Part shown: positions 6,823 through 39,949 of the stretch, one piece after another | How the letters are laid out: the number at the start of each line of letters is the position of its first letter | Numbering within the stretch: the stretch's first letter is position 1 | Source: Candidatus Aminicenantales bacterium | GTDB taxonomy: Bacteria > Acidobacteriota > Aminicenantia > Aminicenantales > Saccharicenantaceae | Length of the DNA: 64,000 nucleotides | Assembly: GCA_049513915.1 (NCBI GenBank) | Contig: JBEKVN010000001.1 | Span: forward strand, 158,283 to 222,282 | Reading direction: 5' to 3' | Notes under the pieces: model-generated | The model's input: the letters and a program-made list of their open reading frames with translations, nothing else | Database searches by the model: none | What the model was told of the DNA's origin: nothing | Program-made: the position numbers and the translations under genes

Positions 6823-7578
6823 CTAACTCCGATAGATTATTTCATTAAAATTGCCTACGTGAGCCGATTCCATTAGACTCAAATATTGGTCGCCGAGCAA
6901 ATATCCGATTTCATCGGCATTTTCCGGATGTACCTCAATTTCAACATTACTGCTGACGGCTCGATTGAAGATATTCCGGAGGCGTTCATGATTTTGCAGA
7001 GGCAAGATGCTGAAAAAGCAATCGGTTGAAATATATCTTCGGGCGATAATATTATCCAGGAGACGTCGATAGAAGAGATTGAATAAGTTTACTTCGCCCT
7101 TATCTAAGGTAAATGTCCTGCGCGCTCGCGCGCCTTTCGGAAGTATCTTGCCCATCAGCATATTCGCACAGAGATGCATGTGATGATGACCGTTGTAAAA
7201 GTCGGGCGCCTTGCCATACAGACGCATAAACTCTTCCAACTGCGCTTTAAACAAAAAGTCAAATGAATCGGCAAGCAAAGGGTTGTAGATGATTTGTGCT
7301 AGCTTGCTTTTCGAAAGATAGGATATCACCCTGCTGTGGCGATCACGAATATTCGAGGATATCTTGTCAACGCTAAACGGCATCGTAAAATTGATGTGCA
7401 ATCCCACTTCCATGCCGGCCTGCAAGGCCAGCGGGGCAGCACGTTTCGAATCCTCCATAAAAACCATTACACTTGCCGACGTAATGCTCTTGTTTGAAAA
7501 GCATTTAAGAATGCTGTCCGTGGCATGGCGGGTTTTGCCATAATCATCGGCTGTGATAATAATCATTGTCCTCGGCAA
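6823..7578 (-). CDS. ChbG/YdjC-family carbohydrate deacetylase
   Basis: N-terminal IIITADDYG matches the YdjC ITADDFG signature. Confidence 0.7.
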   Translation of the reverse strand: MPRTMIIITADDYGKTRHATDSILKCFSNKSITSASVMVFMEDSKRAAPLALQAGMEVGLHINFTMPFSVDKISSNIRDRHSRVISYLSKSKLAQIIYNPLLADSFDFLFKAQLEEFMRLYGKAPDFYNGHHHMHLCANMLMGKILPKGARARRTFTLDKGEVNLFNLFYRRLLDNIIARRYISTDCFFSILPLQNHERLRNIFNRAVSSNVEIEVHPENADEIGYLLGDQYLSLMESAHVGNFNEIIYRS

Positions 7579-11826: not shown

Positions 11827-12789
11827 ATGAATAAGCAGATATTGCTCCTCGTTTCCAAATCCATCAAAGTCATCCTCTGCATATTTCTCATCGATCTTAT
11901 TTTTGGAGAAATCCATAGGTACGTCTTTTTTCAGCAGACGTCGGGGAAATTCTACCGCATCAACTATACGATGGATGTATCGACCGACGAACTTCTCATT
12001 TTTGGCAGTTCCCACGCGGCCGCCCACTATGTTCCCGACGTCTTTGAAAAGGAACTGGGCTTATCCTGCTACAACGCGGGCGTCGCGGGGCAACAGATAT
12101 TGGTTCATAAGACGTTGCAGGAGATCATGCTCCAAAGAACGACTCCTAAGATCATGGTCTTGGATATCGATACGAATGGGTTTTATCAAGATACCTACCA
12201 TTACGATAGGCTGTCGGATCTCCATCCGTTCTATTCTAAGCATGCCGATATCATCGGGAAAGTCCTGGCCCTAAAGTCCGGGCTGACCAAGTATTTTCTC
12301 AGATCGAAGTTATATCAGTATAATTCAACGATTGTCCATGTCGTCAGGTACTGGCTCGCACCTCAAAGGGACAGGAAAGGGTACCAGGCGACATTTGTCG
12401 AGCTGCCCAAGCCGGCGCAAAGGGCGCCTGACCGGCGGGAGGACCAGCCACCCCCTGTACGAAAGACTAGGCCGTTCGATAAGAACCTGATTGCCGCTCT
12501 TGAGCAGTTCGTGCTAAACGCAAAGCAAAGGAATGTCGGACTTATTTTTACCATTTCTCCGACTCTCGACTATACAAGGACATCGGCTGATGATTCCGTG
12601 GAAGAAATACGCTCTATCGCCGACAAATACGGTATCGAATTAATCAACTATATCAACAACCCTGATTTTCTAGGTCACTACGAGCTATTCGCCGATTCCG
12701 GCCATTTGAATGACCCGGGGGCGAGATTGTTCTCCAGGATGGTTGCCGACAAGATCAAGCAAAAGTTCCCGGATCTTCTCCGGAACTAG
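11827..12789 (+). CDS. SGNH/DltD-AlgJ-like O-acyltransferase partner of the MBOAT protein
   Basis: N-terminal TM anchor, GDS-like block FGSSHAAAHY and C-terminal DxxH block FADSGHLND. Immediately downstream of the MBOAT gene, as in AlgI/AlgJ and DltB/DltD pairs. Confidence 0.55.
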   Translation: MNKQILLLVSKSIKVILCIFLIDLIFGEIHRYVFFQQTSGKFYRINYTMDVSTDELLIFGSSHAAAHYVPDVFEKELGLSCYNAGVAGQQILVHKTLQEIMLQRTTPKIMVLDIDTNGFYQDTYHYDRLSDLHPFYSKHADIIGKVLALKSGLTKYFLRSKLYQYNSTIVHVVRYWLAPQRDRKGYQATFVELPKPAQRAPDRREDQPPPVRKTRPFDKNLIAALEQFVLNAKQRNVGLIFTISPTLDYTRTSADDSVEEIRSIADKYGIELINYINNPDFLGHYELFADSGHLNDPGARLFSRMVADKIKQKFPDLLRN

Positions 12790-13954
12790 AGTATCCTTGG
12801 TTCACATTCCGAACTATGTACCTGATATCCTTGGGCTTGAGAGTGTAAAAACTGGGGATGACCAGCGTTCTTCTCAATGTGCGCTCAGCTGATGGACAGT
12901 CACCTTCATAGCCATAGTGTTCTGCGGCGCCCGTTATGACTTCTTCGTAAGGTCTCGATGTGCCGACCCCGCGGTCCCGAAGATAGGTCGCTATCATGTC
13001 CCGCTGTTCGGTCGACGGAAGAATGATGGGATACATGAAGCGATTGGAATAGGCCCGGGGCCTTTCGAGGCACAGCATTCGAGGATCCAATTGCAGATTG
13101 TGCTCGAAATACTCGGCGTTAGCCCTTTGCGATGCAATCATGGAATCCAGCCGGGGCATCCGTCTCCGGACCGTCGCCAAGTCCGATGCGAAGATGCGGC
13201 TTATGACAATAGGCGACTTATCCGCAAACTCGGTCTTTCTATTGTAAACGGCCCATATCCGGGAACCCACCAGCCCCCAGAGGGGCTGGCTGCGGAGCTT
13301 CGACCTGATATAGGTTTCCATGATGTGTTTCATTTCCTCGGCACGGGTGGGCACGGGCAGGGCCGCGGTCAATTCGGAGATGCGAGCGCGGAGATCCGTC
13401 TTGCCCGAATAGAGCGCTCCTCCCTCGCCCACGGAGAGGTATTTTCCCGACCGGAAGCTGAAGAAGGATATATCCCCGAATGACCCACAGGCTCGGCCGT
13501 CGAGCTTGCTTCCGATGGACTGGGCGCAATCTTCGATCACCGGCTTGCCCTCAATGATTTCGAGGATCTTCGGCATGTCGCAGAGGTTTCCGAACATGTG
13601 GACCGCCATCAGGACATCAATACCGGAACGCTTCGCCCGCAGGTCCTCGAGCGATATGCAGAAGGTCTCGGGATCTATGTCCAGAAACCTCGGCACGCAG
13701 TCCGCCGCCTTGATGGCCTTGAATACGACCGGGCAACAATAGAGAGGGACTCCGATCCTCGACCCAGGCGGCATACCGAGGGCCTTGAGGGCGACGATCA
13801 CCGCGGCTCTCGCCGATCTGACGGGGATCCCATTGCCAAGCCCCGGCAAGGAAATCGTAGTTTGGGATTCGACAGGTTTCCGCGCGGCTACCATGCCATG
13901 GACGACATCGCGAATGGAATACCGATGGAGTTCTGTTGGCATTAGACCTGACAT
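12755..13954 (-). CDS. DegT/DnrJ/EryC1/StrS-family aminotransferase
   Basis: PLP aminotransferase fold of the DegT type; its size and composition (399 aa) are typical. Confidence 0.75.
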   Translation of the reverse strand: MSGLMPTELHRYSIRDVVHGMVAARKPVESQTTISLPGLGNGIPVRSARAAVIVALKALGMPPGSRIGVPLYCCPVVFKAIKAADCVPRFLDIDPETFCISLEDLRAKRSGIDVLMAVHMFGNLCDMPKILEIIEGKPVIEDCAQSIGSKLDGRACGSFGDISFFSFRSGKYLSVGEGGALYSGKTDLRARISELTAALPVPTRAEEMKHIMETYIRSKLRSQPLWGLVGSRIWAVYNRKTEFADKSPIVISRIFASDLATVRRRMPRLDSMIASQRANAEYFEHNLQLDPRMLCLERPRAYSNRFMYPIILPSTEQRDMIATYLRDRGVGTSRPYEEVITGAAEHYGYEGDCPSAERTLRRTLVIPSFYTLKPKDIRYIVRNVNQGYSSSGEDPGTFA

Positions 13955-13961
13955 CGGCGCC

Positions 13962-14954
13962 TCAGGAGTTTCCCGTGCCGGAGTCTTTCAGCATATGTCT
14001 CTCGGCATCGACGATATCTCCTCCGCTGCGAACCCGGGCCGCTAGGCCGTAAAGGCGGTATTTCAGAGGACGAAGAGGATACTTCCATATGTAACCGTGC
14101 TTGAGTGTCGCCCCAAAGCGTTTCTTAAACAGGCCAAGCGCTTCTTGTTTTGAACCCTTCTCAGGGCTGATTCTGGCACCCACAAAATCATAAATTCGAA
14201 CGCCCAAGTTCTTGAACAGCCGGATGGCCTCCCAATATAGGAGCTTATTCGCGCCCTGTGGCTGGCCAAGCGCATTTCCGGCATAAATAGCATATGCGCA
14301 ATAATCGCTGTAAGCGAAGACACAAAAGCTTTGAGCGACGCCTTGCTGATCTGCGATCAAAAGTTTCCCGAATTCCGCAAGCCCCAATAGGTAGCCTTTA
14401 AAGGACTCCTGGTCCATGAAAGGGAGCTTCGAGCGCTTGAACGTATCCTTTATCAATTGATAAGCCCCTTCAAACTCTTCTCCGACCGCGTCCCGAATGA
14501 TAATGCCGGCCTTAGAAGCCGACTTGATATTCTGCCGGGTTATCCTGTCGATATTCTTCCATAGGACGTCTTCAGACTGACTTAAATCGATGACATAGCT
14601 GCCGTAGGGGGCGGCGTCGGCCCCATCCGGATAGGTACGGAAAATCGTATTCGTCGTCGCCGGAATGACCATGTCAGCGCCGATCGAGCGGAAATATTCG
14701 ATGGTTCCGTTCAAAAAGGACTTCTCTTCAGAGACGTCGAATCCCTGAACCATGGGAATGGTCTCGACCCGGAAGCGGACCATACGAAAGATGGCTTTCC
14801 GAACAATCGTGTAAGGCAGCACGCATCGGAGCTCACCCGATTCGGCAAACCCGCCCAGCCAGCCGTATTCGTCGCTCACCGCCTTCAAGAAGGATTCTTT
14901 GGCAAAAATGGGAAGCTCGGGGTGCCAGTTGATTTCGACGGGTTGAACTCTCAT
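13962..14954 (-). CDS. FemAB-family / BioF2-like GNAT-fold transferase (paralog 2)
   Basis: NKLLYWEAIRLFKNLGVRIYDFVG matches the C-terminal FemAB-type block. Confidence 0.55.
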   Translation of the reverse strand: MRVQPVEINWHPELPIFAKESFLKAVSDEYGWLGGFAESGELRCVLPYTIVRKAIFRMVRFRVETIPMVQGFDVSEEKSFLNGTIEYFRSIGADMVIPATTNTIFRTYPDGADAAPYGSYVIDLSQSEDVLWKNIDRITRQNIKSASKAGIIIRDAVGEEFEGAYQLIKDTFKRSKLPFMDQESFKGYLLGLAEFGKLLIADQQGVAQSFCVFAYSDYCAYAIYAGNALGQPQGANKLLYWEAIRLFKNLGVRIYDFVGARISPEKGSKQEALGLFKKRFGATLKHGYIWKYPLRPLKYRLYGLAARVRSGGDIVDAERHMLKDSGTGNS

Positions 14955-14980: not shown

Positions 14981-15856
14981 CTATTGAAGATGGGCCAAGG
15001 CCTTTCCATAGTAGTCTCTAAGCCAGCGCATCTGCTCTTTTCTCCTGAATCGGACGAATTCCTCCGGGACCGGCTTGGCCGGATGAGTGATCATCCCCCA
15101 GAAGTATCCGGACAGAAGGAGAAACCCGGACAGGAACAGGGGCTTCGCGCTCATCTGATAGATCGAGCGCAAAAATTGCCAGACGGGATGAACCCCGAGC
15201 ATGTAGTCGCCGTGTCCGCTCTTGAAAGTATATTTCAGGAAGTGAGGGCCCGCTTTTCCCATGGGCCGGAGATGCAGGCAGGACTTTTCCGTGAAGGTCT
15301 CCGTTTTCCAACCCCTCATTCTCGCCGTCACGACGGCGGTAAGATCGATCCCTCCTCCTTTGAGTGGGATGTATCCTCCGATCGTCTCGAAGCATTCCCG
15401 CCGGAACAATTGGCAAGCCCCCGACACATGCTCCTTCCGGGAGAAACGATAGTCGTATTGGGCATCCCCCTCCCGGAAAGGCGTTCCAGCGACGCCCAGG
15501 GTCTTATCCTGGGCGAACTTGTTCAGCAAGAATTCAAAGTAATCAGCGTCAAAGGTGATGTCCGCATCGAGGTTGCCGATGATGTCGTACGGAATATGCC
15601 GTAACTTATCGCGGCCCGCGTTGAACGCTATGGCCTTGCCTCCGAAATGCCGCTCGGCCCGCTCGGGCATCCGCACGAGCTCCATCCAAGGATGTTCGCG
15701 GGCATATTTTTTGACGATCTTATCGGTTCCATCCGTGGAGCCGTCGCTGACGATCACCCACTTGGCCGGCTTGACGGTCTGGTGGATGACGGCTTGGATC
15801 GTCCGCTCGATGAAGGCCGCTTCATTCCGGGCCGGTGTGATAAGGACATAGGTCAT
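14981..15856 (-). CDS. Glycosyltransferase family 2
   Basis: VLITPARNEAAFIE and VIVSDGSTDGT are GT-A motifs. Confidence 0.75.
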   Translation of the reverse strand: MTYVLITPARNEAAFIERTIQAVIHQTVKPAKWVIVSDGSTDGTDKIVKKYAREHPWMELVRMPERAERHFGGKAIAFNAGRDKLRHIPYDIIGNLDADITFDADYFEFLLNKFAQDKTLGVAGTPFREGDAQYDYRFSRKEHVSGACQLFRRECFETIGGYIPLKGGGIDLTAVVTARMRGWKTETFTEKSCLHLRPMGKAGPHFLKYTFKSGHGDYMLGVHPVWQFLRSIYQMSAKPLFLSGFLLLSGYFWGMITHPAKPVPEEFVRFRRKEQMRWLRDYYGKALAHLQ

Positions 15857-16863
15857 GATCGTTCGTCCCGCCTCATGATCTTATCATGCACATCCCTGAA
15901 GGTTGAAATGGGGACGCCCCTGTCTCGCAGGTATGACAGGGAGGATTCGACGGTTTCGAGATCGACCAGGTCCTTCGTGTGACCGATGGCGACGATGGGC
16001 CGAAATACAGCGGGATTCCTTCGATCCTTCGCCATTTCCTGGTCCAGCATCCGGATCATTTCCGCCGCCGTCAAACGACAGAAATCGAGCTTCATCGGAT
16101 GGCGGAACCGTGCGAAATCCCTCAGACGGGCCAGCCCTTTTTGCCGATGCTGGGTTTTCGACGGGCTCTTTTGCTGCAAGCCGATTCGCTTGGCGGTGAA
16201 CATCTTCCATATCGGGACCATCTTGGTGAACGTCGGAATTTCGAGCAGGATCCCTCGGGAGTCGGGAACGTTGACGTCTTCGGAAAACGCCCAATAATAC
16301 CCGTTCTTGCGCGACCCGCGGTAATCGAGATTGTGCTGGTGTTGCAGTCCTCCTTTGAAGATGGAGGAGTCGACCCTGATGCCGTGCCCGGCGAGGGATT
16401 TTGCCGTGGCCCCGGTGGGCTGCAAGAGCCAATTCCCGGCCCGGAAGGACAGGGGGTGGTAGCCGGGCGCCCCAAGGGCCTTTTGGAGATACGCGATGGA
16501 GCGATCGATGATTTGATCTATCCGGCCCGGGGAAAGTCGACACAAGTTGTATTCGCCGTAATCAAGCTGCCATTGGGCGTCTTGGCGTCGCGCGTTATAC
16601 CACTGCGGATGCAGGTGGAGCCCGACCTCGAACCCCTCTCCATGGAATTCGCGGATCTGCCGTTCGACCAGGTCGATGGCCGGGTCCGCGCGCTCGGATC
16701 CTATGATCTCCAGCTCCGCGGCCTCGACGAAAACCACTGAGCGCGCGTTCCACTTCCGGAAGACGGCCTTCAACTTCTCGGCCGGCTCATAGACCAATTC
16801 CCTCAGCGAACCCTCGCCGTTACCGTAAATCTCGTAGTCAACCGTGAAAATGCACTCGATCAT
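15853..16863 (-). CDS. Polysaccharide deacetylase-family protein (PEP-CTERM-locus-type, CE4-like)
   Basis: CIFTVDYEIYG (Asp-x-Glu metal-binding-like) and VGLHLHPQW (His pair). Start at the internal Met (16863) forms an ATGA overlap with the upstream stop. Confidence 0.5.
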   Translation of the reverse strand: MIECIFTVDYEIYGNGEGSLRELVYEPAEKLKAVFRKWNARSVVFVEAAELEIIGSERADPAIDLVERQIREFHGEGFEVGLHLHPQWYNARRQDAQWQLDYGEYNLCRLSPGRIDQIIDRSIAYLQKALGAPGYHPLSFRAGNWLLQPTGATAKSLAGHGIRVDSSIFKGGLQHQHNLDYRGSRKNGYYWAFSEDVNVPDSRGILLEIPTFTKMVPIWKMFTAKRIGLQQKSPSKTQHRQKGLARLRDFARFRHPMKLDFCRLTAAEMIRMLDQEMAKDRRNPAVFRPIVAIGHTKDLVDLETVESSLSYLRDRGVPISTFRDVHDKIMRRDERS

Positions 16864-18059
16864 GGAACCGTCTTTCCCCGGCCCCCCTGTCCATCGAGGA
16901 GATTGGCCAGCGCCTGGAGCATCCACGCCTGAGACCACCTCATGAACGAGGTGCGTACCGTGAAGCGGGCATGTTTCTGGAAGTAGAAGAAACCCCGATT
17001 ATCCCACATGTTCCTCAGCGCCCAGCCGAGAACCGAGTCTGCGAGGTCGACGTTGTCCTTTCCGAAATCCCGGAACTCGGTCAGGGTGATCAGGCTTTGA
17101 GCGACGCTGTGGATGTCGATCGGGTAAGTGGCATCGTGATAGTACCGCGGCGCGCCGTCCTCCCGGAAAAAATGGGCCTTATAGAAATCGAAGCCGCGGC
17201 GGCTGGCTGATTCGAATTCCGTCGTTTGCCCGTATTCGCCGATACGCCGCAGTGCGACGAGATTGAAGCCCGTATGAAAGTTGTCGATCCATCGTTGGGC
17301 CGGCGCCTCGCCGTAATCCCAGGCGCCGTCCGCGTGCTGCTTCCCGACTGAGTAGCGCGCGGCGTCGAGGGCCGGCTCGAGGAACTTCCGTTCTCCCGCA
17401 AGCCGGCTGACCCGGCATAAGAACGCGGCGCCAAGAAGGTTGGCGTTATGGATTTCCGTCCGTTCCAAAGGGGTATAGCTGAAACAAGCCGTTGACGTCC
17501 CTTCTCTCCAAAAGAGCGTCTCCAGGATGAAGTCCGCGGTGCTGATCGCCGTATCAAGATGAGCGGGGTCATGTAAATACTCGAAAGCATCAAGCAGAGC
17601 ATTGGCGGCGAACGTCGAACAGATGATGTTTGGAGACCCTTTCGGCACGAGATAGGTCCTTGTTTGCCAATCGAAATTATACCCCCAACAGGAACGGCGT
17701 GGATGCCGAGACCGCAGGCCCAGGAGTTTGTCCGCCGTAAGGCTCGACAAGTCGTCTTTCCCGATAAGCCCGATTTTTTGAAGTCTCGTAATCGAGGAAA
17801 GGAAGAGCGCAATACCTTTCGGATTAGGGGTCCTCGGCACCAGGAGCAGAGGCCTGAGGTTGACGGGGCATCTTTTTACAGTTTGCGTTAGAAAGAGCCG
17901 GAAGAGCTTGAAGTTGAGGAAAGGGAAAGCCCTAAAAACCTTGCTGTTGAGCGCGTCGTAAGGGTCGAAACCCGCCCAATCATGGGCCCGGCAATAGGCC
18001 AGGAGCTTGAGCGTGGTCTCCTTGGCGCTCTCCCTGTCTGCGACTGTGGGATTGGCCAT
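16860..18059 (-). CDS. Conserved hypothetical protein, possibly an (alpha/alpha)6-barrel epimerase/hydrolase-like enzyme
   Basis: 399 aa, soluble, Trp-rich motifs (WGYNFDWQ, MWDNRGFFYF) that resemble six-hairpin sugar-modifying enzymes. No firm family assignment from sequence alone. Confidence 0.35.
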   Translation of the reverse strand: MANPTVADRESAKETTLKLLAYCRAHDWAGFDPYDALNSKVFRAFPFLNFKLFRLFLTQTVKRCPVNLRPLLLVPRTPNPKGIALFLSSITRLQKIGLIGKDDLSSLTADKLLGLRSRHPRRSCWGYNFDWQTRTYLVPKGSPNIICSTFAANALLDAFEYLHDPAHLDTAISTADFILETLFWREGTSTACFSYTPLERTEIHNANLLGAAFLCRVSRLAGERKFLEPALDAARYSVGKQHADGAWDYGEAPAQRWIDNFHTGFNLVALRRIGEYGQTTEFESASRRGFDFYKAHFFREDGAPRYYHDATYPIDIHSVAQSLITLTEFRDFGKDNVDLADSVLGWALRNMWDNRGFFYFQKHARFTVRTSFMRWSQAWMLQALANLLDGQGGRGKTVP

Positions 18060-18061
18060 GC

Positions 18062-19198
18062 TTATCCGACGGAAGCTGCCAGCAAATGCTCAAGGACCCT
18101 TTTCGCCGTGTGCCCGTCCCATAATGGCGGAATCTGTCCCGTTCGCTGTGGCCCATCAAGCACTGCGCTGACGTCGTCAATAAGGCTATCGAATTTCGTC
18201 AGACGGTTGCTTCCCATGGTCACCGTGACAGGCCGTTCCGTCGTCGGTCGGAGCGTCAGGCACGGAGTCCTGAAGAAGGTGGCTTCCTCTTGGAGACCTC
18301 CGGAATCCGTCAGCACGAGCCTGGCGTTCTCTGTGAGGCATAGAGATTCAAGATATCCGATCGGCTCCATTAAAAGCAGCCGACCCTCAGGCCGCGGGGT
18401 CAGCCCGAATTCGGTCAGGTTCTTGCGCGTGCGTGGATGAATCGGAAAGACCACCGGCAGGTCTTGCGAGAAATGTTCCAGGCCGGACATGATCGTCGAG
18501 AGATTGGTTCGCCCATCTACGTTTGACGGCCGGTGTAACGTAACATAAACAAAGCGGCCGGGTTCGAGGCCAAGTCTGGCCAGAGTGTCGAGTGAACGAG
18601 TCTTCGGCAGGCTCTCGATCAAGGAATCGATCATGATGTTGCCGACGAACTTGATCTTTTCCCCGGGAATCCCTTCATGCATAAGGTTCTCGTTGGCGTC
18701 CCGGGAGGGAGTGAGAAGCAGGTCCGCCAGGGTGTCGGTCACGATGCGATTGATTTCCTCGGGCATTGTCCGGTCGTAACTCCGAAGGCCTGCTTCAATA
18801 TGCGCGATGCGAATGCCCATTTTCGCGCAGACTAGGGCACAGGCCATCGTGGAGTTGACATCCCCCACGACCACCACCCAATCCGGCTTTTCCCGTTCGC
18901 AAACAGTCTCGAAACCCGTGAGTATCTTAGCCGTTTGAGTGGCATGCGAACCCGACCCGACTCCAAGATTGACATCGGGAGGGCGGATTCCGAGCTCCCG
19001 AAAGAAGACCTCGGACATGTTCGCGTCATAATGCTGTCCGGTATGAACGAGCAGCGCCTCTACCGTTAAGGCTGCCGGCTCCTTGATGGAATTATAGGCG
19101 CTGATTTGCTTTAGGAGAGGCCCCACCTTCATGAAATTCGGGCGGGCGCCCGCAACAACTATTATTTTCAGCTTTCGCATTCGTGCATCTTCGGCCAT
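18062..19198 (-). CDS. wecB: UDP-N-acetylglucosamine (or UDP-GlcNAc3NAcA) 2-epimerase, non-hydrolysing (copy 1)
   Basis: IIVVAGARPNFMKVGPL...HTGQHYD...DSGGLQEE are WecB/MnaA hallmarks. Confidence 0.85.
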   Translation of the reverse strand: MAEDARMRKLKIIVVAGARPNFMKVGPLLKQISAYNSIKEPAALTVEALLVHTGQHYDANMSEVFFRELGIRPPDVNLGVGSGSHATQTAKILTGFETVCEREKPDWVVVVGDVNSTMACALVCAKMGIRIAHIEAGLRSYDRTMPEEINRIVTDTLADLLLTPSRDANENLMHEGIPGEKIKFVGNIMIDSLIESLPKTRSLDTLARLGLEPGRFVYVTLHRPSNVDGRTNLSTIMSGLEHFSQDLPVVFPIHPRTRKNLTEFGLTPRPEGRLLLMEPIGYLESLCLTENARLVLTDSGGLQEEATFFRTPCLTLRPTTERPVTVTMGSNRLTKFDSLIDDVSAVLDGPQRTGQIPPLWDGHTAKRVLEHLLAASVG

Positions 19199-19200
19199 CG

Positions 19201-21288
19201 CTAAAGCTGTTCAGGCCGGACAGCAATTCTATGGCTTCCGGAACGCACCCTCTCAATCCGGATGATATCCTCGATGTGTTCGATGATATCATGCAAGGCG
19301 GCTCGGGGCCTGCTGTCAGGCTGCCGGACTTTGTCCCGGCGGACAAATTGGATTTTGGACGTGACTTCTTCGACGCTATGGATCATTGTCAGCCGGCCCT
19401 GCTTCTCGAGGCTGAGATCCACGGCCCCGGTTTTTCCGCGAAATATGCTGTAGACCGGTATCCCCAAGGCTGCGGCCTCGCGGTTCATGGTTCCGCCGCC
19501 GCTGACTACGAAATCGGAAAACCAGAGAAGGTCGAGGCCATTCACGGCCCAGGGGGGAACGAGGGTCTTTGCATCCACGAACCAACCAGGATGGTTCTCC
19601 CGGAAGCCCTCCTCCTGAGCATGGTTACGCGGCAACAGGATCGCCTGGATATTTGGAGTTTGGCAGATCCTCGACATCAGCTCGACAAGCAGCACATCGC
19701 TCTCCGGATTATAGTAGTGGGCTTCGTTCGCCGGAGGCCTCACGGTGACGATCATGTCCTCTTCGCGCACGCCCAACGTTGCCAATAGTGCGGCCGAAGG
19801 CTTGAATTCAGGGACGTAGACATCCTCCTTTATCCCCCGGTAATATCGGACTCGGCTGATCCTTGAGGGCAAGCCCTCCGGGGCCAGGGAATCCGGTACG
19901 ATCGCCCAGCGGGGGTGGGTCAGCGGGGCGGTCTTCGCGTATTCGTAGTCGGCGATGAGGATGGTCGGAATTCGAAGCAGATTGCAGGCCAGAGTTTGAG
20001 AGCGGGCCCCATGCGATAACGCCAGGCCCGGTTTCTGCCGGATGGCAAATGGGAGTAACTGTCCTGCTCGCCATAGCAGGCCAATGACCTTCATGACGGG
20101 GTTCTTGCCATAATGGCGGCCGACCTTGAGGTAATTAAGCCCGTTCTTGTCTGCAAGCTCGCAAACCTGGAACGCATCGCGGGCGGTCAGAACGACCTTG
20201 TGCCCTCGCCGTGTCAGTTCGCGGATAATCGGGATGAAGAAAGGAACGTGCGGCGTATTGTCGAGGTCAATCCAGATCTTTGTAGATGGCGTCGAAGTCT
20301 TTTGAATTTGCTGGAGCAAGTGCTCCTGCGGTAAAAGCTTGGCCCCTTCCGGAAGTGGGTAGCTGGGGTCATGCCAGGACATTGTTCTTCGCCAGAATCG
20401 AGCCATGTCTCGGGAAAGAACGTGCCAGTAATGATCCGCATATTTTGTTCGAACATAATCGAGGAACTCAAGGTAAAAATCAACCGGATATTCCTCGTAG
20501 GCCAAGGGACCTTCGCCAAAATTCATATAGTCGGGATGTGTATTCAACGCGGCCATCCCGCCTTTCTCGGCAATCCAGTCAACCTTCTGCTTCCAGATCT
20601 TTATGTCCTTTTCCTGCAGGATCACAAAGAGCCCGTGGTCTTGAGGCAACGTGTAGGGAATCTCAACATAGGTCCTCGTGTTCAGGGCGTTATTCGCCAT
20701 GAAGGGGAATATGGTCCCCACACCGTCGGATTGGGGCTCGAAAGGATCCGTATCGAAAGTGGAACAGGCATGCTTGATGGAGAGTTCGCCTATCCAACTG
20801 AGGTTGCGAAGCATGGACGGGGAGGTAAAGCCCTCCGCACCCCATTTCTTGAGGTAGCTATTTATTCGAGGCACCTTCTCGCAAAATTCAATCGGATTCC
20901 TGAAGAGCTTTCCGTCGTGCTTGAGCCCATGCACCCCGATTTCAAACCCCGACTCGTCCAGGCTATGCCGTAGGGAGGGGGGCAGGGGATAGTCCTCGGG
21001 CACGAAGTTGAACGATGAGCGGAAACCCAACTCCTTTTCCAATTTCATAAGCTTGGTACACTGCTTGAGGCCCTTTACGGAGTCCACATCGTGCTGAAGG
21101 ACCAACGCGAATTTCCTTTTTTCTGGCCAACCTTTCCAACCCTGGGGCGCCTGGGACGACTTGGGGTCAATCGGCCATACATTCGCGTATATTCTCCGTT
21201 TATGACGCGCGATCGTCCTTCTTATCCAAATCTGCAGCCTGCGCGGGAAGACGGGTTTTACCTGATAATAGATATCGATCAGCTTCAT
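19201..21288 (-). CDS. Two-domain protein: N-terminal polysaccharide deacetylase-like domain fused to a C-terminal DUF354 (GT-B-like) domain
   Basis: N-terminal half has FALVLQHDVDSVKGL and IGVHGLKHD (CE4-like). C-terminal half (TKIWIDLDNTPHVPFFIPIIRELTRRGHKV) matches DUF354 proteins, which have a Rossmann glycosyltransferase/epimerase-like fold. Confidence 0.5.
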   Translation of the reverse strand: MKLIDIYYQVKPVFPRRLQIWIRRTIARHKRRIYANVWPIDPKSSQAPQGWKGWPEKRKFALVLQHDVDSVKGLKQCTKLMKLEKELGFRSSFNFVPEDYPLPPSLRHSLDESGFEIGVHGLKHDGKLFRNPIEFCEKVPRINSYLKKWGAEGFTSPSMLRNLSWIGELSIKHACSTFDTDPFEPQSDGVGTIFPFMANNALNTRTYVEIPYTLPQDHGLFVILQEKDIKIWKQKVDWIAEKGGMAALNTHPDYMNFGEGPLAYEEYPVDFYLEFLDYVRTKYADHYWHVLSRDMARFWRRTMSWHDPSYPLPEGAKLLPQEHLLQQIQKTSTPSTKIWIDLDNTPHVPFFIPIIRELTRRGHKVVLTARDAFQVCELADKNGLNYLKVGRHYGKNPVMKVIGLLWRAGQLLPFAIRQKPGLALSHGARSQTLACNLLRIPTILIADYEYAKTAPLTHPRWAIVPDSLAPEGLPSRISRVRYYRGIKEDVYVPEFKPSAALLATLGVREEDMIVTVRPPANEAHYYNPESDVLLVELMSRICQTPNIQAILLPRNHAQEEGFRENHPGWFVDAKTLVPPWAVNGLDLLWFSDFVVSGGGTMNREAAALGIPVYSIFRGKTGAVDLSLEKQGRLTMIHSVEEVTSKIQFVRRDKVRQPDSRPRAALHDIIEHIEDIIRIERVRSGSHRIAVRPEQL

Positions 21289-21380
21289 GATCTTAAGCTC
21301 TTGCCCGCTTGGAAAATATAGCCAAAATTAGCCCTCAACGTCCCGGGTAATATACCATTTTTTGTGTTTTTTTTGAATGC

Positions 21381-21410
21381 TTGACAGGCGGCGGCTATTG
21401 TGGTTATAAG
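21381..21410 (+). promoter_or_regulatory. Candidate sigma70 promoter (TTGACA-N17-TTATAA) for the radical SAM operon, in a divergent intergenic region
   Basis: TTGACA at 21381-21386 and TTATAA at 21404-21409, preceded by a T-rich UP-like tract, about 85 nt upstream of the rSAM start. Confidence 0.4.
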
Positions 21411-21492
21411 TATTCCAAACACGGGGACCTAGGCCATGGGCCAGGCTCCGGACAGAATTGCGGGGCTAAATGCGCATTCAAGGGCCGCTCAG

Positions 21493-22935
21493 ATGAGAGT
21501 TGTTCTCATCAATCCTCCGACATCGTTCGAGCAGATCTACGGCGATTGGGATCTATCGGCGCTCGACACCTACACGCCACCCTTGGGGATCCTCCATATC
21601 GCCAGCTATATCAGAAAATTCGGGCACTCCGTGAAAATATTCGATCTCCAGCTTCCTGACCTGAAAATCTCGGATGCTATCCGACAAATCCGGTCCTGGC
21701 CCGCGGATATCGTCGGATTTACCGCCATGACCTCGAATTGCCGGAGCGCGCAGGAAATTGCCAAGGAAATCAAAAAGAGCCTTCCCGCCGTTCCCATCAT
21801 TCTGGGCGGGGCTCATATTTCGGCCGTTCCCACGGAAACCATGAAAAGATTCGTTGCCATCGATTTCGGCGTCATCGGAGAAGGCGAGGTCTCTTTTCTA
21901 GAGCTGCTTGGAAAAATCGCCGACGGGCAATCCGTTGCAGAGGTCAAGGGAATCGTCTGGCGGGCGGAAGACGGGAGGGCCGTCCTGAACGAGCCCCGGG
22001 CTCCCATCCAAAATCTGGACGACCTCCCGATGCCCGCCTGGGATCTCCTGGATCGTTTTCCCGAGGGCTATCCAAGCTCTCTCCTGGAGGCGAAGAGACT
22101 GCCGGGAACGGCAATCATGACGTCCCGAGGATGTCCATTTCACTGCACCTTCTGCGATCATCGGGTCTTCGGTTCGCGGGTCCGGCACTTTAGCGCGGAA
22201 TATTCCTTGAACATGATGAGACACTTGAAAAGCCGATATGACATAAGGGACCTGATGATCATCGACGACAATTTCCTGCTCGATAAAAGGAAGCTCTTCG
22301 AGATATGCGACGGGATGATGGCTGAAGATATGGATTTCACTTGGTATTGCATGGGCCACGAAAAATCCATGACAGACGACAGGCTGGCGAAGATCCGGGA
22401 AGCGGGATGTTGGTTCATTGAGATGGGTATAGAAAGCGGTAATGACGGTATTCTTGCGAAGATAAAGAAAGGGACAACAAAAGCCGACGTCGAAAGTGCG
22501 GTGAAACGGGCGAAGAAGGCGGGGTTGAAAATCAAAGGCAATTTCATTTTCGGATTTCCCGGCGAAACTCTCGAAACGTTGGAAGAAACAATCGAGTTCG
22601 CCTTGGGTCTCAAGATTGATTTCTTCCAACAAAACTTTTTGACCGTTTGGCCGGGGTGTGAGATAGCCGAGGAATTATCCAAAACGCCGCAGGCCGTTCA
22701 CAGGCTTGAAGATGATTGGGATAGGCTCGCCCATCAGAGGGCTACGTTCGTCCCCGCTGGAATGACTGGAGAACAGCTGGTCAAAGCTTCAAAAAGAGCA
22801 TTCCGGAGATTCTATCTGCGCCCTAGGATCATCAGCGGACTCATCCCGAGATTGGCATCGTGGCGGGGGCTAAAATTCGGCTTGCTCAGCTTCAGGGCAT
22901 TCCTGGGCACGATTTTCAGGCATAACACGGCTTGA
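21493..22935 (+). CDS. B12-binding-domain radical SAM protein (class B rSAM, probable C-methyltransferase or related)
   Basis: N-terminal Rossmann-like cobalamin-binding region (RVVLINPP...) followed by the radical SAM cluster motif SRGCPFHCTFCD (CxxxCxxC). The track ORF starts 19 codons upstream. Confidence 0.75.
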   Translation: MRVVLINPPTSFEQIYGDWDLSALDTYTPPLGILHIASYIRKFGHSVKIFDLQLPDLKISDAIRQIRSWPADIVGFTAMTSNCRSAQEIAKEIKKSLPAVPIILGGAHISAVPTETMKRFVAIDFGVIGEGEVSFLELLGKIADGQSVAEVKGIVWRAEDGRAVLNEPRAPIQNLDDLPMPAWDLLDRFPEGYPSSLLEAKRLPGTAIMTSRGCPFHCTFCDHRVFGSRVRHFSAEYSLNMMRHLKSRYDIRDLMIIDDNFLLDKRKLFEICDGMMAEDMDFTWYCMGHEKSMTDDRLAKIREAGCWFIEMGIESGNDGILAKIKKGTTKADVESAVKRAKKAGLKIKGNFIFGFPGETLETLEETIEFALGLKIDFFQQNFLTVWPGCEIAEELSKTPQAVHRLEDDWDRLAHQRATFVPAGMTGEQLVKASKRAFRRFYLRPRIISGLIPRLASWRGLKFGLLSFRAFLGTIFRHNTA

Positions 22936-28262: not shown

Positions 28263-29331
28263 TTTTCCGGCGGAGGTCCTTGTGGATGGTCGTGTTGAGG
28301 TAGTAAAGCTCCTCGAAATAGCGCTTCTTCTGGAGGGAAAGAAGGCCGAGGCTGATGAGCTGGATGGCCACGAGCAGGGCGATGCCGCCGACGATGAACG
28401 AATGGGGCGAGGCTGCGAAGGCTGCGCCGATGGCGTCGGATAATCTGTAGTCGAAGGACAGGCCGGGGCCCGCGGCCTTGCGATAGGCGTGGATCGTGTG
28501 GACAACCGTCCAGGTCAACGGATAAAGGGAGAGCACGAAAAGAAGGCCGCCCGGGACGATGAAAAACATGAAGGGCCGGAAGATGTATCCGGAGAGGATG
28601 TGATGGACCATGCTCCTCGCGACCTTCAGGGACGATTTTCTCCGTACCGCGAGAGACCCTGTCTCAAGAGCCGGCTTCCAATCGAGATGGGCCGGGCATT
28701 CCATGATCCGGGCCCGCAGGATCTTTGCTTTGTAGATGATTTCCGGGTTGATCTCGACGTCCATAGACTTAAGGGTCAACCGACGCAGGAATTTGCCGTC
28801 GTAGGCACGGACCATACCCGTGATCGTCGTGAGCTTGTCGGACTGGCTGTCCTTGGCGACCGTCATAGCCAAAAAACGGTTGGCCCAAAAGCTCAGGAGC
28901 CTGCGGGCCCAGGGAACGTTCGAGACCTTGCCGCCCTTAGCGTAGGGAGAGGCGATAACGATCTTGGCCCCCGTCTCTTTCATCCGGGCCAGCATCCGGC
29001 CGACATGCGCGGGGGTGTAGCTGAGGTCGATGTCCAGGACGGCGACATAATCGCCCTTGCTTTCATTAAAGGCGAATCGGAGGGCCTGCCCGAGCTTGAA
29101 ATTGAACTTGTGATGGAGGACGACTACACGACCCCGCTCCGCCGCGAAAGAGTCGGCGATCTTGCCGGTCGCGTCGGTGCTCCCATCGTCGACCACGATC
29201 AGCTCCCAGCGGTATTCCGCCTCGAGGCTGGCCAGGTATTCGCAGATGATGGACAAATTGTGTTGGATGATCTGTTCTTCGTTGTAGGCCGGGACGATGA
29301 CCGTGAGGAGAGGCTTCTCTGGAGGCATCAT
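28252..29331 (-). CDS. GT2 polyprenyl-phosphate sugar synthase (DPM1/GtrB/ArnC-like) with C-terminal TM helices
   Basis: PLLTVIVPAYNEEQ, VVDDGSTD and DID motifs, plus two C-terminal membrane helices. This architecture is typical of bactoprenol-P-sugar synthases. Confidence 0.7.
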   Translation of the reverse strand: MMPPEKPLLTVIVPAYNEEQIIQHNLSIICEYLASLEAEYRWELIVVDDGSTDATGKIADSFAAERGRVVVLHHKFNFKLGQALRFAFNESKGDYVAVLDIDLSYTPAHVGRMLARMKETGAKIVIASPYAKGGKVSNVPWARRLLSFWANRFLAMTVAKDSQSDKLTTITGMVRAYDGKFLRRLTLKSMDVEINPEIIYKAKILRARIMECPAHLDWKPALETGSLAVRRKSSLKVARSMVHHILSGYIFRPFMFFIVPGGLLFVLSLYPLTWTVVHTIHAYRKAAGPGLSFDYRLSDAIGAAFAASPHSFIVGGIALLVAIQLISLGLLSLQKKRYFEELYYLNTTIHKDLRRKNDQ

Positions 29332-30305
29332 GCTCCTTTCGCCCTGAGGCTTCGGACCCTCGATCGCCCTTTTTTAACCATGAGCGATTCGGCATAGACA
29401 TCCATAGGCACGAGTTGGAACTTCTTCGAAAGGATTTCCATGACTCTCGAGAGCGCCCTCTGCTTCTTCTCTTTTATTATGTCCATGCCGGGAAAAAAGG
29501 CAAGCCCGGGAACCTCTTCGGCGCTCAGGAAATCGAGGGGATGGAGAAGGAAGCTCAGGCCGGTCCGGGTCCACCGGCACAAATTCGCGGCGGTCCCGAG
29601 ATAATCGAGCATCAAGGCGTCGGAAAAACGGGCCATATAGAGAAGATAGCTGAAATGGATCGGGACTTTGAAAAACGGCATAGTCGTCACGGGGATTTCC
29701 AACAAACGTCCTCCGCCTGGAAGAGCCCAAGAATAGGGTTTTACCGGCAGGAGGGCCTCGCGAAAGCCGCCGAAGAGCTTTTTCCGGTCCCTCTTTTCGT
29801 CGGGGGTGAGGTCGGATTTCCAGAAGTAATAGAGACGCCCAAGCGGGCCGATCCACGTCGGGAGCGTCGAAGCGTCATAGTTGTAGTCGAGCTCCTTCAA
29901 GACGAGGATTAAGTCTTCGCTCCAGCTGAAGCCCGGTCCGCGGAAGCCGGCCGGTCTTCGTCCTGTGGCTTCTTGGATGGCTTTTTCTGCAAGAAGGATC
30001 TCTTCCCGGATCTTCTCCCGTGGGAAAAGATGGAGCCACGGCTCGTGCCGATGGGAGTGATTCCCGACGTCGTGGCCGTTTCTGGTGATCTCGGCCAGGG
30101 CTCTACGGTTCTTGTCCAGCGCGGCATCCTGACCCACGACGAAGAAGGTCATTTTCAAGTCCAGGCGGCCGCAAAAATCGAGGACCTGCGGGATTAAGAT
30201 GTCCAAATAGGAAGGGTAATCCTCCCATCCCGTATCGCCGTGGGTCTTCACGTAGGACCACTTGTTGTCGAGGTCGAGAGAAAGCGCGGCCAGGGGCTTT
30301 TTCAT
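29328..30305 (-). CDS. Polysaccharide deacetylase (CE4, NodB homology domain)
   Basis: MTFFVVGQDA and GNHSHRHE are classic NodB motifs. Start at Met-30 (ATG 30303-30305) makes an ATGA overlap with the upstream stop. Confidence 0.75.
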   Translation of the reverse strand: MKKPLAALSLDLDNKWSYVKTHGDTGWEDYPSYLDILIPQVLDFCGRLDLKMTFFVVGQDAALDKNRRALAEITRNGHDVGNHSHRHEPWLHLFPREKIREEILLAEKAIQEATGRRPAGFRGPGFSWSEDLILVLKELDYNYDASTLPTWIGPLGRLYYFWKSDLTPDEKRDRKKLFGGFREALLPVKPYSWALPGGGRLLEIPVTTMPFFKVPIHFSYLLYMARFSDALMLDYLGTAANLCRWTRTGLSFLLHPLDFLSAEEVPGLAFFPGMDIIKEKKQRALSRVMEILSKKFQLVPMDVYAESLMVKKGRSRVRSLRAKGA

Positions 30306-31969
30306 GAGTGGACGGCCTTTTGGACCAGACGCGAGGCAAATCCGTCCCAACCGGCCGGTTCCTCCACCGGGCCGGGGTCGGCGAGGAGGCATCCGGTCGT
30401 GCAGGTTTCCGCGATGGCCTTGACTTTTTCGAAACCGGCCCGGTTGAACTCGTCCAAGGCATAGCGGTCGTTGGCAAAACGGATGAAGGAGTCGACCTCG
30501 TTGGAGAAGCCCGTCTTCATGGCCCGGAAGCCGTGGTAGACGGCGTCGACGAATTCGAGCGGTGGCCTGGTCTTGCCGCGTCCTAAGCCATGGAAGGCGA
30601 TGTCCTTAGCCGGACTATCCGTCCGGCCGAGCAGGTTGCAGCCGTCGAAGATGTGTTTCAATCTCGGCGCCGCCCGCAATATCGACTCCAAGTTCTCGCG
30701 GTAGGCGCGGTGGCCCGCGCAAAACACGAGCAGATCGGCTTTCCCGAGGGCTTCGTCAAGGTCCCGTGTGAAGTGCCCGGTGAGCCGGGATTTTTTCAAA
30801 TTCTGATCATCCTTTTTGACGTAGGGATCATGGAGAACGACATCGGCGCCCTTGGCCAGCAGCAAGTTGGCCAGGACGAGCGTCGGCGAATTACGGGTAT
30901 CCTCGGAGTCTGGACGGTAAGCCGTGCCCATGAGCGCGAGGGTTTTGCCGGCGACGTCCCCCGAGCGCCGCTCGATGAGCGAGATCGCCACGGCCGGGGA
31001 CTCGTCGTTGATACGCCGCGCTTCGAGGATCAGACTGGAGGACATGTCCCGGCCGCTCTCGATCTGCCTCCAAAGGAGGAGGATCCCGTCCTTGGGAAGG
31101 CAGTGCCCCCCGACCCCGACCGTCGGGATGAGCAGGCCGCCGGTCGGGACCTCGCTCGAGGCCGAGGAGGCCAGGTCGCTCCACGCCAGGCGCCGGTTGA
31201 CTTCATCCCGGATGCAGTAATAGTCGATATCCTTATCTTCGCAGGCCCGGGCGATTTCGACCGAGTAGGCGATCCGGACGTCACGGTAGGCGTTCTCGAG
31301 CGTTTTCACGATCTCCGCGGTGAGGCTGTTCGTGAGATGGAGCTTGCCGTTGCGGACGATCGAGGAATATAGGGAGTGGATGAGCTTCGGCGTTCGAGGG
31401 TCGAGCCCGCCGGCGACCTTGTCGGATCGCCTAATCCGCTCCACGAGCCGGCCGGGCATGACGCGATTGGGGCTGTTGCCGAGAAGGATCGTCCGGCCGT
31501 CGGCGAAACCATGCCGGCCGAAAAGGTCCGCGACCCAGGTGGCCATGGATGTCGGGGCGAGGGTGGACTCGAAGATGACCAAGGGAGTCTTCCCGGAACG
31601 CCTTCTCTTGAGGGCTTCCGCCGTTCGATGGATCGCGTCTTCCAAGGGCTCGTAATCGGGCCCGAACCCCTTTTTATCGGTCTGGACGCAGATAAGGATC
31701 GCATCGGCCTCTCTGAGGTCGGCGTAATCATGGCTGGCCGTCAGCCGTCCCCGAGCGTGCGCTTCGGCCACGATCCCATCGAGCTCGGGCTCGATCCCTC
31801 CGATGGGGGATTTTCCGCGATTGATCGCGTCCACCTTCCAGCCCGAGGTCGGGGAGGCACGTTGGATGACGACGACGCGATGGCCGGCTTCGGCGAGCAG
31901 GGCGGCCATCGGGACTCCGACGATGCCCGCTCCGATGACCGCAATGTCCTGGATTTCCGTTTCCGGCAT
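30302..31969 (-). CDS. UDP-sugar 6-dehydrogenase (UDP-glucose/GDP-mannose dehydrogenase family; WbpA/WecC-like) with C-terminal extension
   Basis: IAVIGAGIVGVPMAALLAEAGHRVVVI (NAD site) and GGHCLPKD (catalytic Cys). Start at ATG 31967-31969. Confidence 0.8.
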   Translation of the reverse strand: MPETEIQDIAVIGAGIVGVPMAALLAEAGHRVVVIQRASPTSGWKVDAINRGKSPIGGIEPELDGIVAEAHARGRLTASHDYADLREADAILICVQTDKKGFGPDYEPLEDAIHRTAEALKRRRSGKTPLVIFESTLAPTSMATWVADLFGRHGFADGRTILLGNSPNRVMPGRLVERIRRSDKVAGGLDPRTPKLIHSLYSSIVRNGKLHLTNSLTAEIVKTLENAYRDVRIAYSVEIARACEDKDIDYYCIRDEVNRRLAWSDLASSASSEVPTGGLLIPTVGVGGHCLPKDGILLLWRQIESGRDMSSSLILEARRINDESPAVAISLIERRSGDVAGKTLALMGTAYRPDSEDTRNSPTLVLANLLLAKGADVVLHDPYVKKDDQNLKKSRLTGHFTRDLDEALGKADLLVFCAGHRAYRENLESILRAAPRLKHIFDGCNLLGRTDSPAKDIAFHGLGRGKTRPPLEFVDAVYHGFRAMKTGFSNEVDSFIRFANDRYALDEFNRAGFEKVKAIAETCTTGCLLADPGPVEEPAGWDGFASRLVQKAVHS

Positions 31970-31971
31970 GA

Positions 31972-33873: not shown

Positions 33874-33886
33874 GCTTAAAGACCTC

Positions 33887-39490: not shown

Positions 39491-39949
39491 TTATAACAAA
39501 TCATCGGGGATTTCCCTGCGACCGGCTTTCTTATCGGTATCGATCAGCTCGATATTCAAACCAGGCCGGGCGTAAAGAAAGGCGATTTTCTCGTTCTCGA
39601 AGGCCTCTCCGGGCTGTGGCTCCGCGATTACGCGCATTCCTTTCTTCCTCAACCGCTCGATTCCGGCGGCGAGGTTCGTGCATCTGAAGCAGATATGGTG
39701 GAGACCGCCTCCCTTGAGAGCGAATTGATAAATTGGAGATCGCTTATCGGAGGGCTCGATGAGCTTGACCAGGCAGGAATCCTTCTTGGCCAGGAAGATG
39801 ACGTTGACCTTCTGGCGGGTGTTGGCGACTTTTTCGGTTATCGGGACGTAGCCGAATAACGATGTCCATTGCTCAATGCCTTCGTCGAGCCGCTTGACGA
39901 CGAAACCTATGTGATCGATGACCATCGGTTCATTTCCATGGTGGATCAT
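39491..39949 (-). CDS. VOC-family (glyoxalase/methylmalonyl-CoA epimerase-like) protein
   Basis: VIDHIGFVV is the VOC beta-alpha-beta-beta-beta N-terminal module. 152 aa. Confidence 0.55.
   Translation of the reverse strand: MIHHGNEPMVIDHIGFVVKRLDEGIEQWTSLFGYVPITEKVANTRQKVNVIFLAKKDSCLVKLIEPSDKRSPIYQFALKGGGLHHICFRCTNLAAGIERLRKKGMRVIAEPQPGEAFENEKIAFLYARPGLNIELIDTDKKAGRREIPDDLL

Follow-up and report, generated by a model that had tools for sequence, protein, structure and literature searches.

Pairing of a glycosyltransferase with a deacetylase is a familiar scheme, with precedents in NodC/NodB/NodA, MshA/MshB/MshC, PIG-A/PIG-L, HpnI/HpnK and LpxA/LpxC/LpxD. In the synthesis of the Nod factor, NodC builds the N-acetylhexosamine (HexNAc) unit, NodB, which has the carbohydrate esterase family 4 (CE4) fold, takes off one N-acetyl group, and N-acylation of the resulting free amine follows. 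In the MshA/MshB, BshA/BshB, PIG-A/PIG-L and BtrM/BtrD pairs, a GT4/GT-B enzyme adds N-acetylglucosamine (GlcNAc) and a deacetylase immediately frees the amine for acylation or ligation. In the Pel system, the epimerase PelX supplies an unusual uridine diphosphate (UDP)-HexNAc, the GT4 enzyme PelF uses it and the CE4 protein PelA partly de-N-acetylates the product. Here we describe a gene of a Candidatus Aminicenantales bacterium that encodes, in one polypeptide of 695 amino acids (aa), a CE4-like domain followed by a DUF354 domain (PF04007), a long-established Pfam family found widely among bacteria and archaea, to which, to our knowledge, no function has been assigned. The gene lies in a 64,000-nucleotide (nt) stretch of contig JBEKVN010000001.1, hereafter the window, and is the first of seven genes in a tightly packed operon (fusion, WecB, p399, p361/336, GT2, FemAB-like, DegT; Table 1). 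Our leading proposal, tentative and with a little less than an even chance of holding as a complete chain, is that the fusion would be a cytoplasmic bifunctional enzyme of exopolysaccharide or glycoconjugate synthesis, in which transfer of a HexNAc is followed by de-N-acetylation and then by re-acylation.

The fusion is conserved across phyla

The complete 695-aa sequence has an exact match in NCBI (MGA2531531.1, 'DUF354 domain-containing protein', from a Candidatus Aminicenantales metagenome-assembled genome, MAG), and the identical protein is found on two contigs (291,881 and 47,370 bp) and recorded by NCBI, JGI, ENA and Logan. Full-length orthologues of about 690 aa fall into more than 120 clusters at 90% identity, from many GTDB species; the best-scoring 120 clusters (54–85% identity) are all 606–734 aa long and most of them span 96–100% of the query. 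A scan of the GTDB species representatives gave at least 593 related stretches, with uninterrupted full-length fusions in Aminicenantes, Saccharicenans, many Verrucomicrobiota, a Tepidanaerobacteraceae MAG and a Syntrophus MAG. The same scan found DUF354 without the N-terminal domain in many Acidobacteriota, Paludibaculum fermentans, a Bradyrhizobium, Geobacter, Nitrospira and others, and the N-terminal domain without DUF354 in several deltaproteobacterial MAGs and in one MAG each of Bryobacteraceae, Verrucomicrobia and Kiritimatiellia.

Halves encoded alone in many related genomes, together with split high-scoring segment pairs at a few MAG loci (L017, L021), are compatible with two separate genes joined by a frameshift or an assembly error in a MAG, a risk that the earlier note on this DNA had raised. 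The conserved full-length orthologues in more than 120 clusters and several phyla exclude such an artefact, to which we give practically no credence; the identical protein from several sources, the continuous matches in MAGs of several phyla and the existence of a fusion in the reverse order (P0164) also speak against it. The same note had called the fusion unusual, which is overstated, since the fusion is common in metagenomes of Aminicenantes and Verrucomicrobiota and the name given by JGI to some orthologues, 'predicted glycosyltransferase/peptidoglycan/xylan/chitin deacetylase (PgdA/CDA1 family)', already covers both halves.

A search of the whole protein against the PDB sequences with phmmer returned a spurious match to C1r only. 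An AlphaFold2 (AF2) model built on 58 orthologues has a mean predicted local distance difference test score (pLDDT) of 89 and a predicted template-modelling score of 0.88, the two domains being separated by a variable linker. The protein contains no signal peptide or transmembrane segment. It is probably membrane-peripheral, as a conserved cationic amphipathic helix at aa 16–33 (charge +8, hydrophobic moment 0.61) could hold it at the membrane.

The C-terminal DUF354 domain

The C-terminal half matches PF04007 over model positions 2–325 of 349, scoring 118.9 bits (cutoff 22) at E 3.4e-34, which bears out its earlier assignment to DUF354. Invariant in this domain are D341, D343, N344, K395, K400, G427, D447-Y448-E449, K487-E488, G598-G599 and N602-R603-E604. 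The modelled half has the GT-B fold, in which a cleft separates two Rossmann-like α/β/α domains, with a Foldseek probability of 1.00 to WecB, NeuC and GT1 enzymes over 380–400 columns. The best structural matches are UDP-GlcNAc 2-epimerases, NeuC and WbpI-type epimerases (E ~3e-10, template-modelling score on the target (TMt) 0.59–0.69); GT1 glycosyltransferases are found at similar E-values and lower TMt (0.51–0.55). Among the 50 matches listed, 37 are UDP-GlcNAc/UDP-ManNAc3NAcA 2-epimerases or NeuC. When built from deeper alignments, the DUF354 and WecB profiles align in hhalign along 330 columns (an E of 9e-6 when only these two are compared) and have in common the motifs GxHY, KP…G, T..xPxN, PR and SGG..E; with shallow alignments this comparison was uninformative, and no signal was obtained between DUF354 and the GT4 profile. 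In BLASTP, the C-terminal half reached E 0.006 against the neighbouring WecB. The fusion has no match to PF02350 or TIGR00236 above cutoff, and PF02350 appears as a precomputed extra match in two orthologue clusters (P0057, P0061).

The segment SGGGTMNRE of DUF354 aligns with DSGGxQEE of WecB, which we take, from the motif (SGG..E), to be the UDP-binding site of the Escherichia coli enzyme. The catalytic residues of E. coli WecB, likewise mapped by motif, are D95, E117, E131 and H213; in the hhalign alignment, whose per-column confidence is low, they fall on S/A428, on A446 (D447 is adjacent), on a gap and on R517, respectively. The epimerase catalytic residues therefore appear unconserved, which favours a role in glycosyl transfer over epimerisation without proving it, and DUF354 looks like a nucleotide-sugar enzyme derived from Epimerase_2 with a different catalytic set. 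In a literature search no function of DUF354 was found, the papers that contain the whole word 'DUF354' assigning none.

The same similarities allow another explanation, unlikely in our judgement yet a serious one, in which DUF354 would be a diverged UDP-sugar enzyme of the WecB/NeuC type (an epimerase, a UDP-eliminating hydrolase or similar) acting at the level of the nucleotide sugar or free sugar; the CE4-like domain would deacetylate a small sugar and the AGE-like protein p399, encoded in the same operon, would epimerise or isomerise it, giving an unusual amino-sugar precursor. The predominance of epimerases among the structural matches, the profile alignment with WecB and the BLASTP match all agree with this, as does the resemblance of p399, the tightest partner of DUF354 across phyla, to free-sugar enzymes. 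It is less easily reconciled with the replacement of D95, E131 and H213 in that low-confidence alignment, with the bona fide WecB encoded next door, with a cassette lacking genes for sugar reactivation (kinase, nucleotidyltransferase, NeuB/NeuA type), or with the relatives of the N-terminal domain being most often fused to true glycosyltransferases. Where the earlier note had suggested a coupled step of deacetylation plus glycosyl transfer or epimerisation, the coupling fits the domain architectures described below; as to the chemistry, the nearness of DUF354 to Epimerase_2 and the apparent lack of conservation of the WecB catalytic residues point in different directions.

The N-terminal CE4-like domain

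The N-terminal half is assigned to no family at threshold by Pfam or NCBIfam, so that the CE4-like call rests on fold, PDB profile matches, distant relatives and motif conservation and does not follow from the Pfam annotation proposed as a check in the earlier note. In Foldseek against the PDB, this half of the AF2 model matches 3rxz_A, a putative polysaccharide deacetylase (E 7e-9, 309 columns, TMt 0.61), and has the distorted (β/α) barrel of the deacetylase fold; 3rxz_A is the single CE4 entry among the 50 matches listed because GT-B matches dominate. A profile search of PDB chains with the domain yielded four marginal matches, all of them CE4 deacetylases aligned on the H-x3-H region, and its more distant relatives match PF01522 (Polysacc_deac_1) at 20–22 bits (E 2–6e-4). 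The two-domain architecture read earlier from the sequence therefore stands, the C-terminal half by its Pfam match and the N-terminal half by fold and motifs.

Among 150 representatives at ≤55% identity, H66-D67-V-(D/E)69, H120, H124, D179, D181, Q216-D217 and H251-P-D253 are 97–100% conserved, and D125 and E184 about 90%. An active metal-dependent hydrolase carrying a variant set of CE4 motifs would be expected to look like this. Since motif 1 reads H-D-V-(D/E) in place of the canonical TFDD and no counterpart of the motif-3 Arg could be identified, we do not count the domain among CE4 proteins as Pfam defines them. These departures, and a Polysacc_deac_1 match below the Pfam threshold, would also suit a domain that is inactive, that acts as an O-deacetylase or esterase, or that serves as a carbohydrate-binding or scaffolding module positioning DUF354, with no N-deacetylation step. 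O-acetyl esterases also exist within CE4. Some CE4 family members are reported to lack deacetylase activity (PMC4505593). A scaffold is not expected to keep putative metal ligands and acid/base residues near-invariant, as D67, H120, H124, H251, D179, D181, E184, Q216, D217 and D253 are in the same representatives, and the links of the domain, by fusion and by neighbourhood, with FemAB-like N-acylating enzymes fit the release of an amine; given this conservation, an inactive or non-N-deacetylating domain is less likely, and we hold it to be improbable. BoPDA (PMC11713874) was considered as a relative of the domain and rejected, its CE4-in-CBM (carbohydrate-binding module) architecture being unrelated.

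Alternative fusion partners of the N-terminal domain

A search of 1.84 billion representatives (50% identity) with aa 1–330 of the fusion returned 1,928 members of the N-domain family at E≤1e-3, of which 1,193 at ≤1e-10. It is a large family without a Pfam model, occurring stand-alone or fused. The architectures of the best 150 of the 1,928 (P0121–P0270) were sorted by phmmer against the domains of the window and the GT4 segments of three representatives. The N-domain was alone in 75 of the 150, many of these being fragments. GT4 was the partner in 47, placed after the N-domain in 34 (P0261 confirmed by Pfam) and before it in 13 (seven confirmed), which makes eight confirmed cases in all. DUF354 followed the N-domain in eight and preceded it in two, P0164 included. 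Other partners are Alg14/Glyco_tran_28_C after the N-domain in P0122 (both below the Pfam cutoffs), Glyco_tran_28_C before it in P0132 (above threshold), and a FemAB-like/Acetyltransf_6 domain after it in P0121, P0153 and P0170. This repeated joining to GT-B transferases of the HexNAc type or to the FemAB-like N-acylating class is a signature of consecutive pathway steps, and the set of partners would fit a pathway in which a HexNAc is transferred, then de-N-acetylated and then N-(amino)acylated.

The operon and its conserved neighbourhood

The TAG stop of the fusion (19203–19201) is followed by CG and then by the ATG of the wecB open reading frame (ORF) at 19198, confirming the 2-nt spacing that the earlier note had reported. 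The next junction, from WecB to p399, is also of 2 nt; p399 and p361 overlap in ATGA, and p361 and GT2 by 4 nt. At 297.6 bits, the WecB lies above the NCBIfam wecB equivalog cutoff of 210. Its orthologues align only from aa 7–10, so the true start may be a second ATG at 19180, which would lengthen the spacer to 20 nt, still tightly packed. It is one of two copies in the window, as the label 'wecB copy 1' in that note implied.

The third gene product, p399, belongs to no Pfam or NCBIfam family and gave nothing meaningful in phmmer against the PDB sequences. Its AF2 model (pLDDT 86.8) is an (α/α)6 barrel resembling, by Foldseek, GH76 mannanases and the sugar 2-epimerases of the AGE family, with likenesses among free-sugar enzymes: cellobiose-, glucose- and GlcNAc-2-epimerases and YihS. 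For p361, the likely start is the ATG at 16863, overlapping the stop of p399 and giving a protein of about 336 aa, and its orthologues align from aa 21–26. This protein, too, has no family and no meaningful phmmer match among the PDB sequences; two of ten orthologues match PF01522 below threshold. Compared with the N-domain of the fusion, it is not significant in BLASTP and aligns in hhalign over 15 columns only, around GFEVG.H, so paralogy is unproven; it is possibly a second divergent CE4-like enzyme. The FemAB-like protein scores 38.1 bits against TIGR03019 (XrtA/PEP-CTERM-associated), below the cutoff of 260, and is a member of the superfamily only. A promoter-like site precedes the fusion start by 60 nt, within the intergenic region 21289–21435 between the two divergent genes, where the number of such sites is not above chance and the site is notable for its position only.

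The gene order of the cassette recurs on independent contigs. Neighbours within 3 kb were counted at loci with enough flanking DNA, 12 with the fusion and 40 with unfused DUF354. WecB is found immediately downstream at 12/12 fused loci and at 19/40 unfused ones. A FemAB-like gene is nearby at 5/12 fused and 3/40 unfused loci (Fisher p 0.011, an optimistic value given the phylogenetic dependence among the loci). Across phyla, no neighbour of DUF354 is conserved as widely as p399; in distant lineages (Bacteroidia, Ignavibacteriota, Kapaibacterium, Patescibacteria and a Iainarchaeum archaeon, L075–L081 and L086 among the loci), its homologue stands immediately upstream of a stand-alone DUF354 gene, without WecB.

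Stand-alone DUF354 genes occur in tandem in a Rugosimonospora MAG (L038, 509–2765, followed by p399 and GT2) and in a Nitrospiraceae MAG (L047, 4841–7032, followed by WecB), a sign that DUF354 may have duplicated locally in some lineages. An exosortase EpsH gene is found near the fusion in L003.

Proposed pathway

In the pathway that we favour, the adjacent WecB would convert UDP-GlcNAc into UDP-N-acetylmannosamine (UDP-ManNAc). DUF354, keeping the SGGG…E nucleotide-binding motif but not the epimerase acid/base residues, would bind the UDP-HexNAc and move the HexNAc onto an acceptor, probably lipid-linked. The fused CE4-like domain, with its conserved putative site of the Asp/His/His type, would strip the N-acetyl group in the cytoplasm, and the freed amine would be re-acylated or aminoacylated by the FemAB-like enzyme or enzymes of the operon.

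Several observations weigh against this proposal, beside the relatedness of the loci counted above. Both in fold (Foldseek) and in profile (hhalign), DUF354 is nearer to Epimerase_2 than to glycosyltransferases, and its putative glycosyltransferase catalytic residues have been described as poorly conserved and its function as obscure, in a study that predicts a glycosyltransferase fold (PMC4520260). The PF01522 match of the N-terminal half is below the gathering score (12.6 bits against 23.1; E 0.14), and no residue was found to correspond to the canonical Arg of CE4 motif 3, the sole aligned Arg, in 3rxz, pairing with T155/S156. The FemAB fusions show that partners of the N-domain need not be transferases, so the argument from partner substitution is suggestive only. 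Finally, at many loci, that of Paludibaculum fermentans (L027) among them, the cassette is the same but DUF354 stands alone, without the N-domain, which makes the deacetylase domain an accessory to a DUF354–WecB–(α/α)6 core and not its defining part.

A bolder version, which we consider rather unlikely, would make DUF354 the founder of a new glycosyltransferase family that arose from UDP-GlcNAc 2-epimerases and uses UDP-ManNAc, in partnership with p399, which is conserved from Acidobacteriota to Patescibacteria and DPANN archaea; the fused form would channel its product to the cytoplasmic CE4-like de-N-acetylase for the attachment of amino acids by FemAB-like enzymes, giving envelope polysaccharides with N-aminoacyl-mannosamine.

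The fusion, its invariant WecB neighbour and the interchangeable partners of the N-domain together give a concrete hypothesis for DUF354, in which a sugar taken from UDP-ManNAc or UDP-GlcNAc is transferred, de-N-acetylated and finally N-(amino)acylated. They also expose two sizeable families without a profile model, the CE4-like N-domain (~1,900 representatives at 50% identity) and p399, both part of pathways for envelope polysaccharides in phyla with few cultured members (Aminicenantes, Verrucomicrobiota, Acidobacteriota).

The surrounding exopolysaccharide locus

The window is a large exopolysaccharide locus with Wzy, MBOAT, a WecC-like dehydrogenase, an AsnB-type amidotransferase, a canonical CE4 enzyme, YdjC, a hexapeptide acyltransferase, AMP-binding enzymes and several GT2s. 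Its set of genes for tailoring by N-deacetylation and re-acylation is unusually rich for a single polysaccharide locus. The AMP-binding enzymes number two, and a second module, which contains the other WecB, resembles the exopolysaccharide gene sets associated with exosortase/PEP-CTERM. A link to the HpnI/HpnK/HpnJ type of system through the radical SAM gene divergent from the fusion was rejected: the gene is absent beside the fusion in L001–L006, and its best NCBIfam match, HpnJ, scores 187 bits against a cutoff of 577.

Table 1. Coordinates of the fusion gene, its domains, its operon and other features of the window
Feature	Position in window (nt)	Strand	Size or residues	Basis or remark
Fusion gene	19201..21288	-	695 aa, ATG start	ORF list, exact database match, AF2 model
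CE4-like (deacetylase-fold) domain	20380..21288	-	aa 1–~303	Foldseek, marginal PDB profile matches, residue conservation
Putative metal/catalytic residues of the N-domain			H66, D67, D69, H120, H124, H251, D253	Residue conservation
Interdomain linker, variable, lower confidence	20284..20379	-	aa ~304–335	pLDDT 66–67 in blocks 301–320; no consensus residues in orthologue alignment
DUF354 (PF04007) GT-B-fold domain	19327..20280	-	aa 337–654	Pfam, Foldseek, invariant columns
WecB-type non-hydrolysing UDP-GlcNAc 2-epimerase	18062..19198	-		Pfam Epimerase_2 E 7e-99
p399, unannotated cytoplasmic (α/α)6-barrel protein	16860..18059	-	399 aa	AF2, Foldseek, synteny, junction
p361/336, unannotated	15853..16863 (likely); 15853–16938 (listed ORF)	-	361 aa (listed ORF)	Junction, orthologues
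GT2 glycosyltransferase	14981..15856	-	291 aa	PF00535 E 1e-20; conserved in cassette
FemAB-like/Acetyltransf_6, putative aminoacyl or acyl transferase (one of three in window)	13962..14954	-		Pfam; TIGR03019-like
DegT/DnrJ/EryC1-type sugar aminotransferase, last cassette gene	12755..13954	-		Pfam E 4e-43; same position in L003, L006
Promoter-like site TTCAAA-17-TATATT with TG	21349..21377	-		Consensus scan
B12-binding radical SAM gene, divergent from fusion	21436–22935	+
FemAB-like/Acetyltransf_6 (one of three in window)	5719–6822	-
FemAB-like/Acetyltransf_6 (one of three in window)	42443–43477	-
YdjC deacetylase	6823–7578
Canonical CE4	29328–30392
Second module (the three genes below, then CE4 and GT2 genes)	30302–35005	-
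UDP-sugar dehydrogenase, second module	30302–32041	-
AsnB-type amidotransferase, second module	31972–33873	-
WecB copy 2, second module	33887–35005	-
Hexapeptide acyltransferase	39946–40839

Comparison with known systems

A close parallel to the proposed pathway is NodC/NodB/NodA, whose logic would be followed here in the cytoplasm, with N-acylation assigned to FemAB-like enzymes. The components differ: NodC is a GT2 enzyme and not a GT-B/DUF354 protein, the Nod enzymes are three separate proteins, and NodB matches PF01522 well, whereas the N-domain of the fusion stays below threshold. The sugar, GlcNAc in the Nod factor, is here probably ManNAc because of the WecB neighbour. The pairs of GT4 and de-N-acetylase are similar in that relatives of the N-domain are actually fused to GT4 enzymes; their deacetylases, however, have the LmbE/PIG-L fold and not that of CE4, they are unfused, and DUF354 has no profile similarity to GT4.

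Compared with the Epimerase_2 family (WecB, MnaA, NeuC, WbpI), DUF354 has there its best structural and profile matches and a common C-terminal SGG…E, but the fusion lacks a PF02350 match, the equivalents of D95, E131 and H213 are unconserved in an alignment of low confidence, and DUF354 has an invariant set of its own. The Pel system would offer an analogous succession of epimerase, GT-B enzyme and CE4 enzyme. PelA, however, is periplasmic and acts on the polymer, whereas the CE4-like domain described here is fused to a cytoplasmic GT-B domain without a signal peptide, and the epimerase is a 2-epimerase instead of a 4-epimerase. Since deacetylation after glycosyl transfer is familiar from other systems, the fusion would extend an established scheme and add no new principle; what is new, to judge from sequence and predicted fold, is the pairing in one polypeptide of an Epimerase_2-like GT-B family with a cytoplasmic CE4-like family that has had no profile model.

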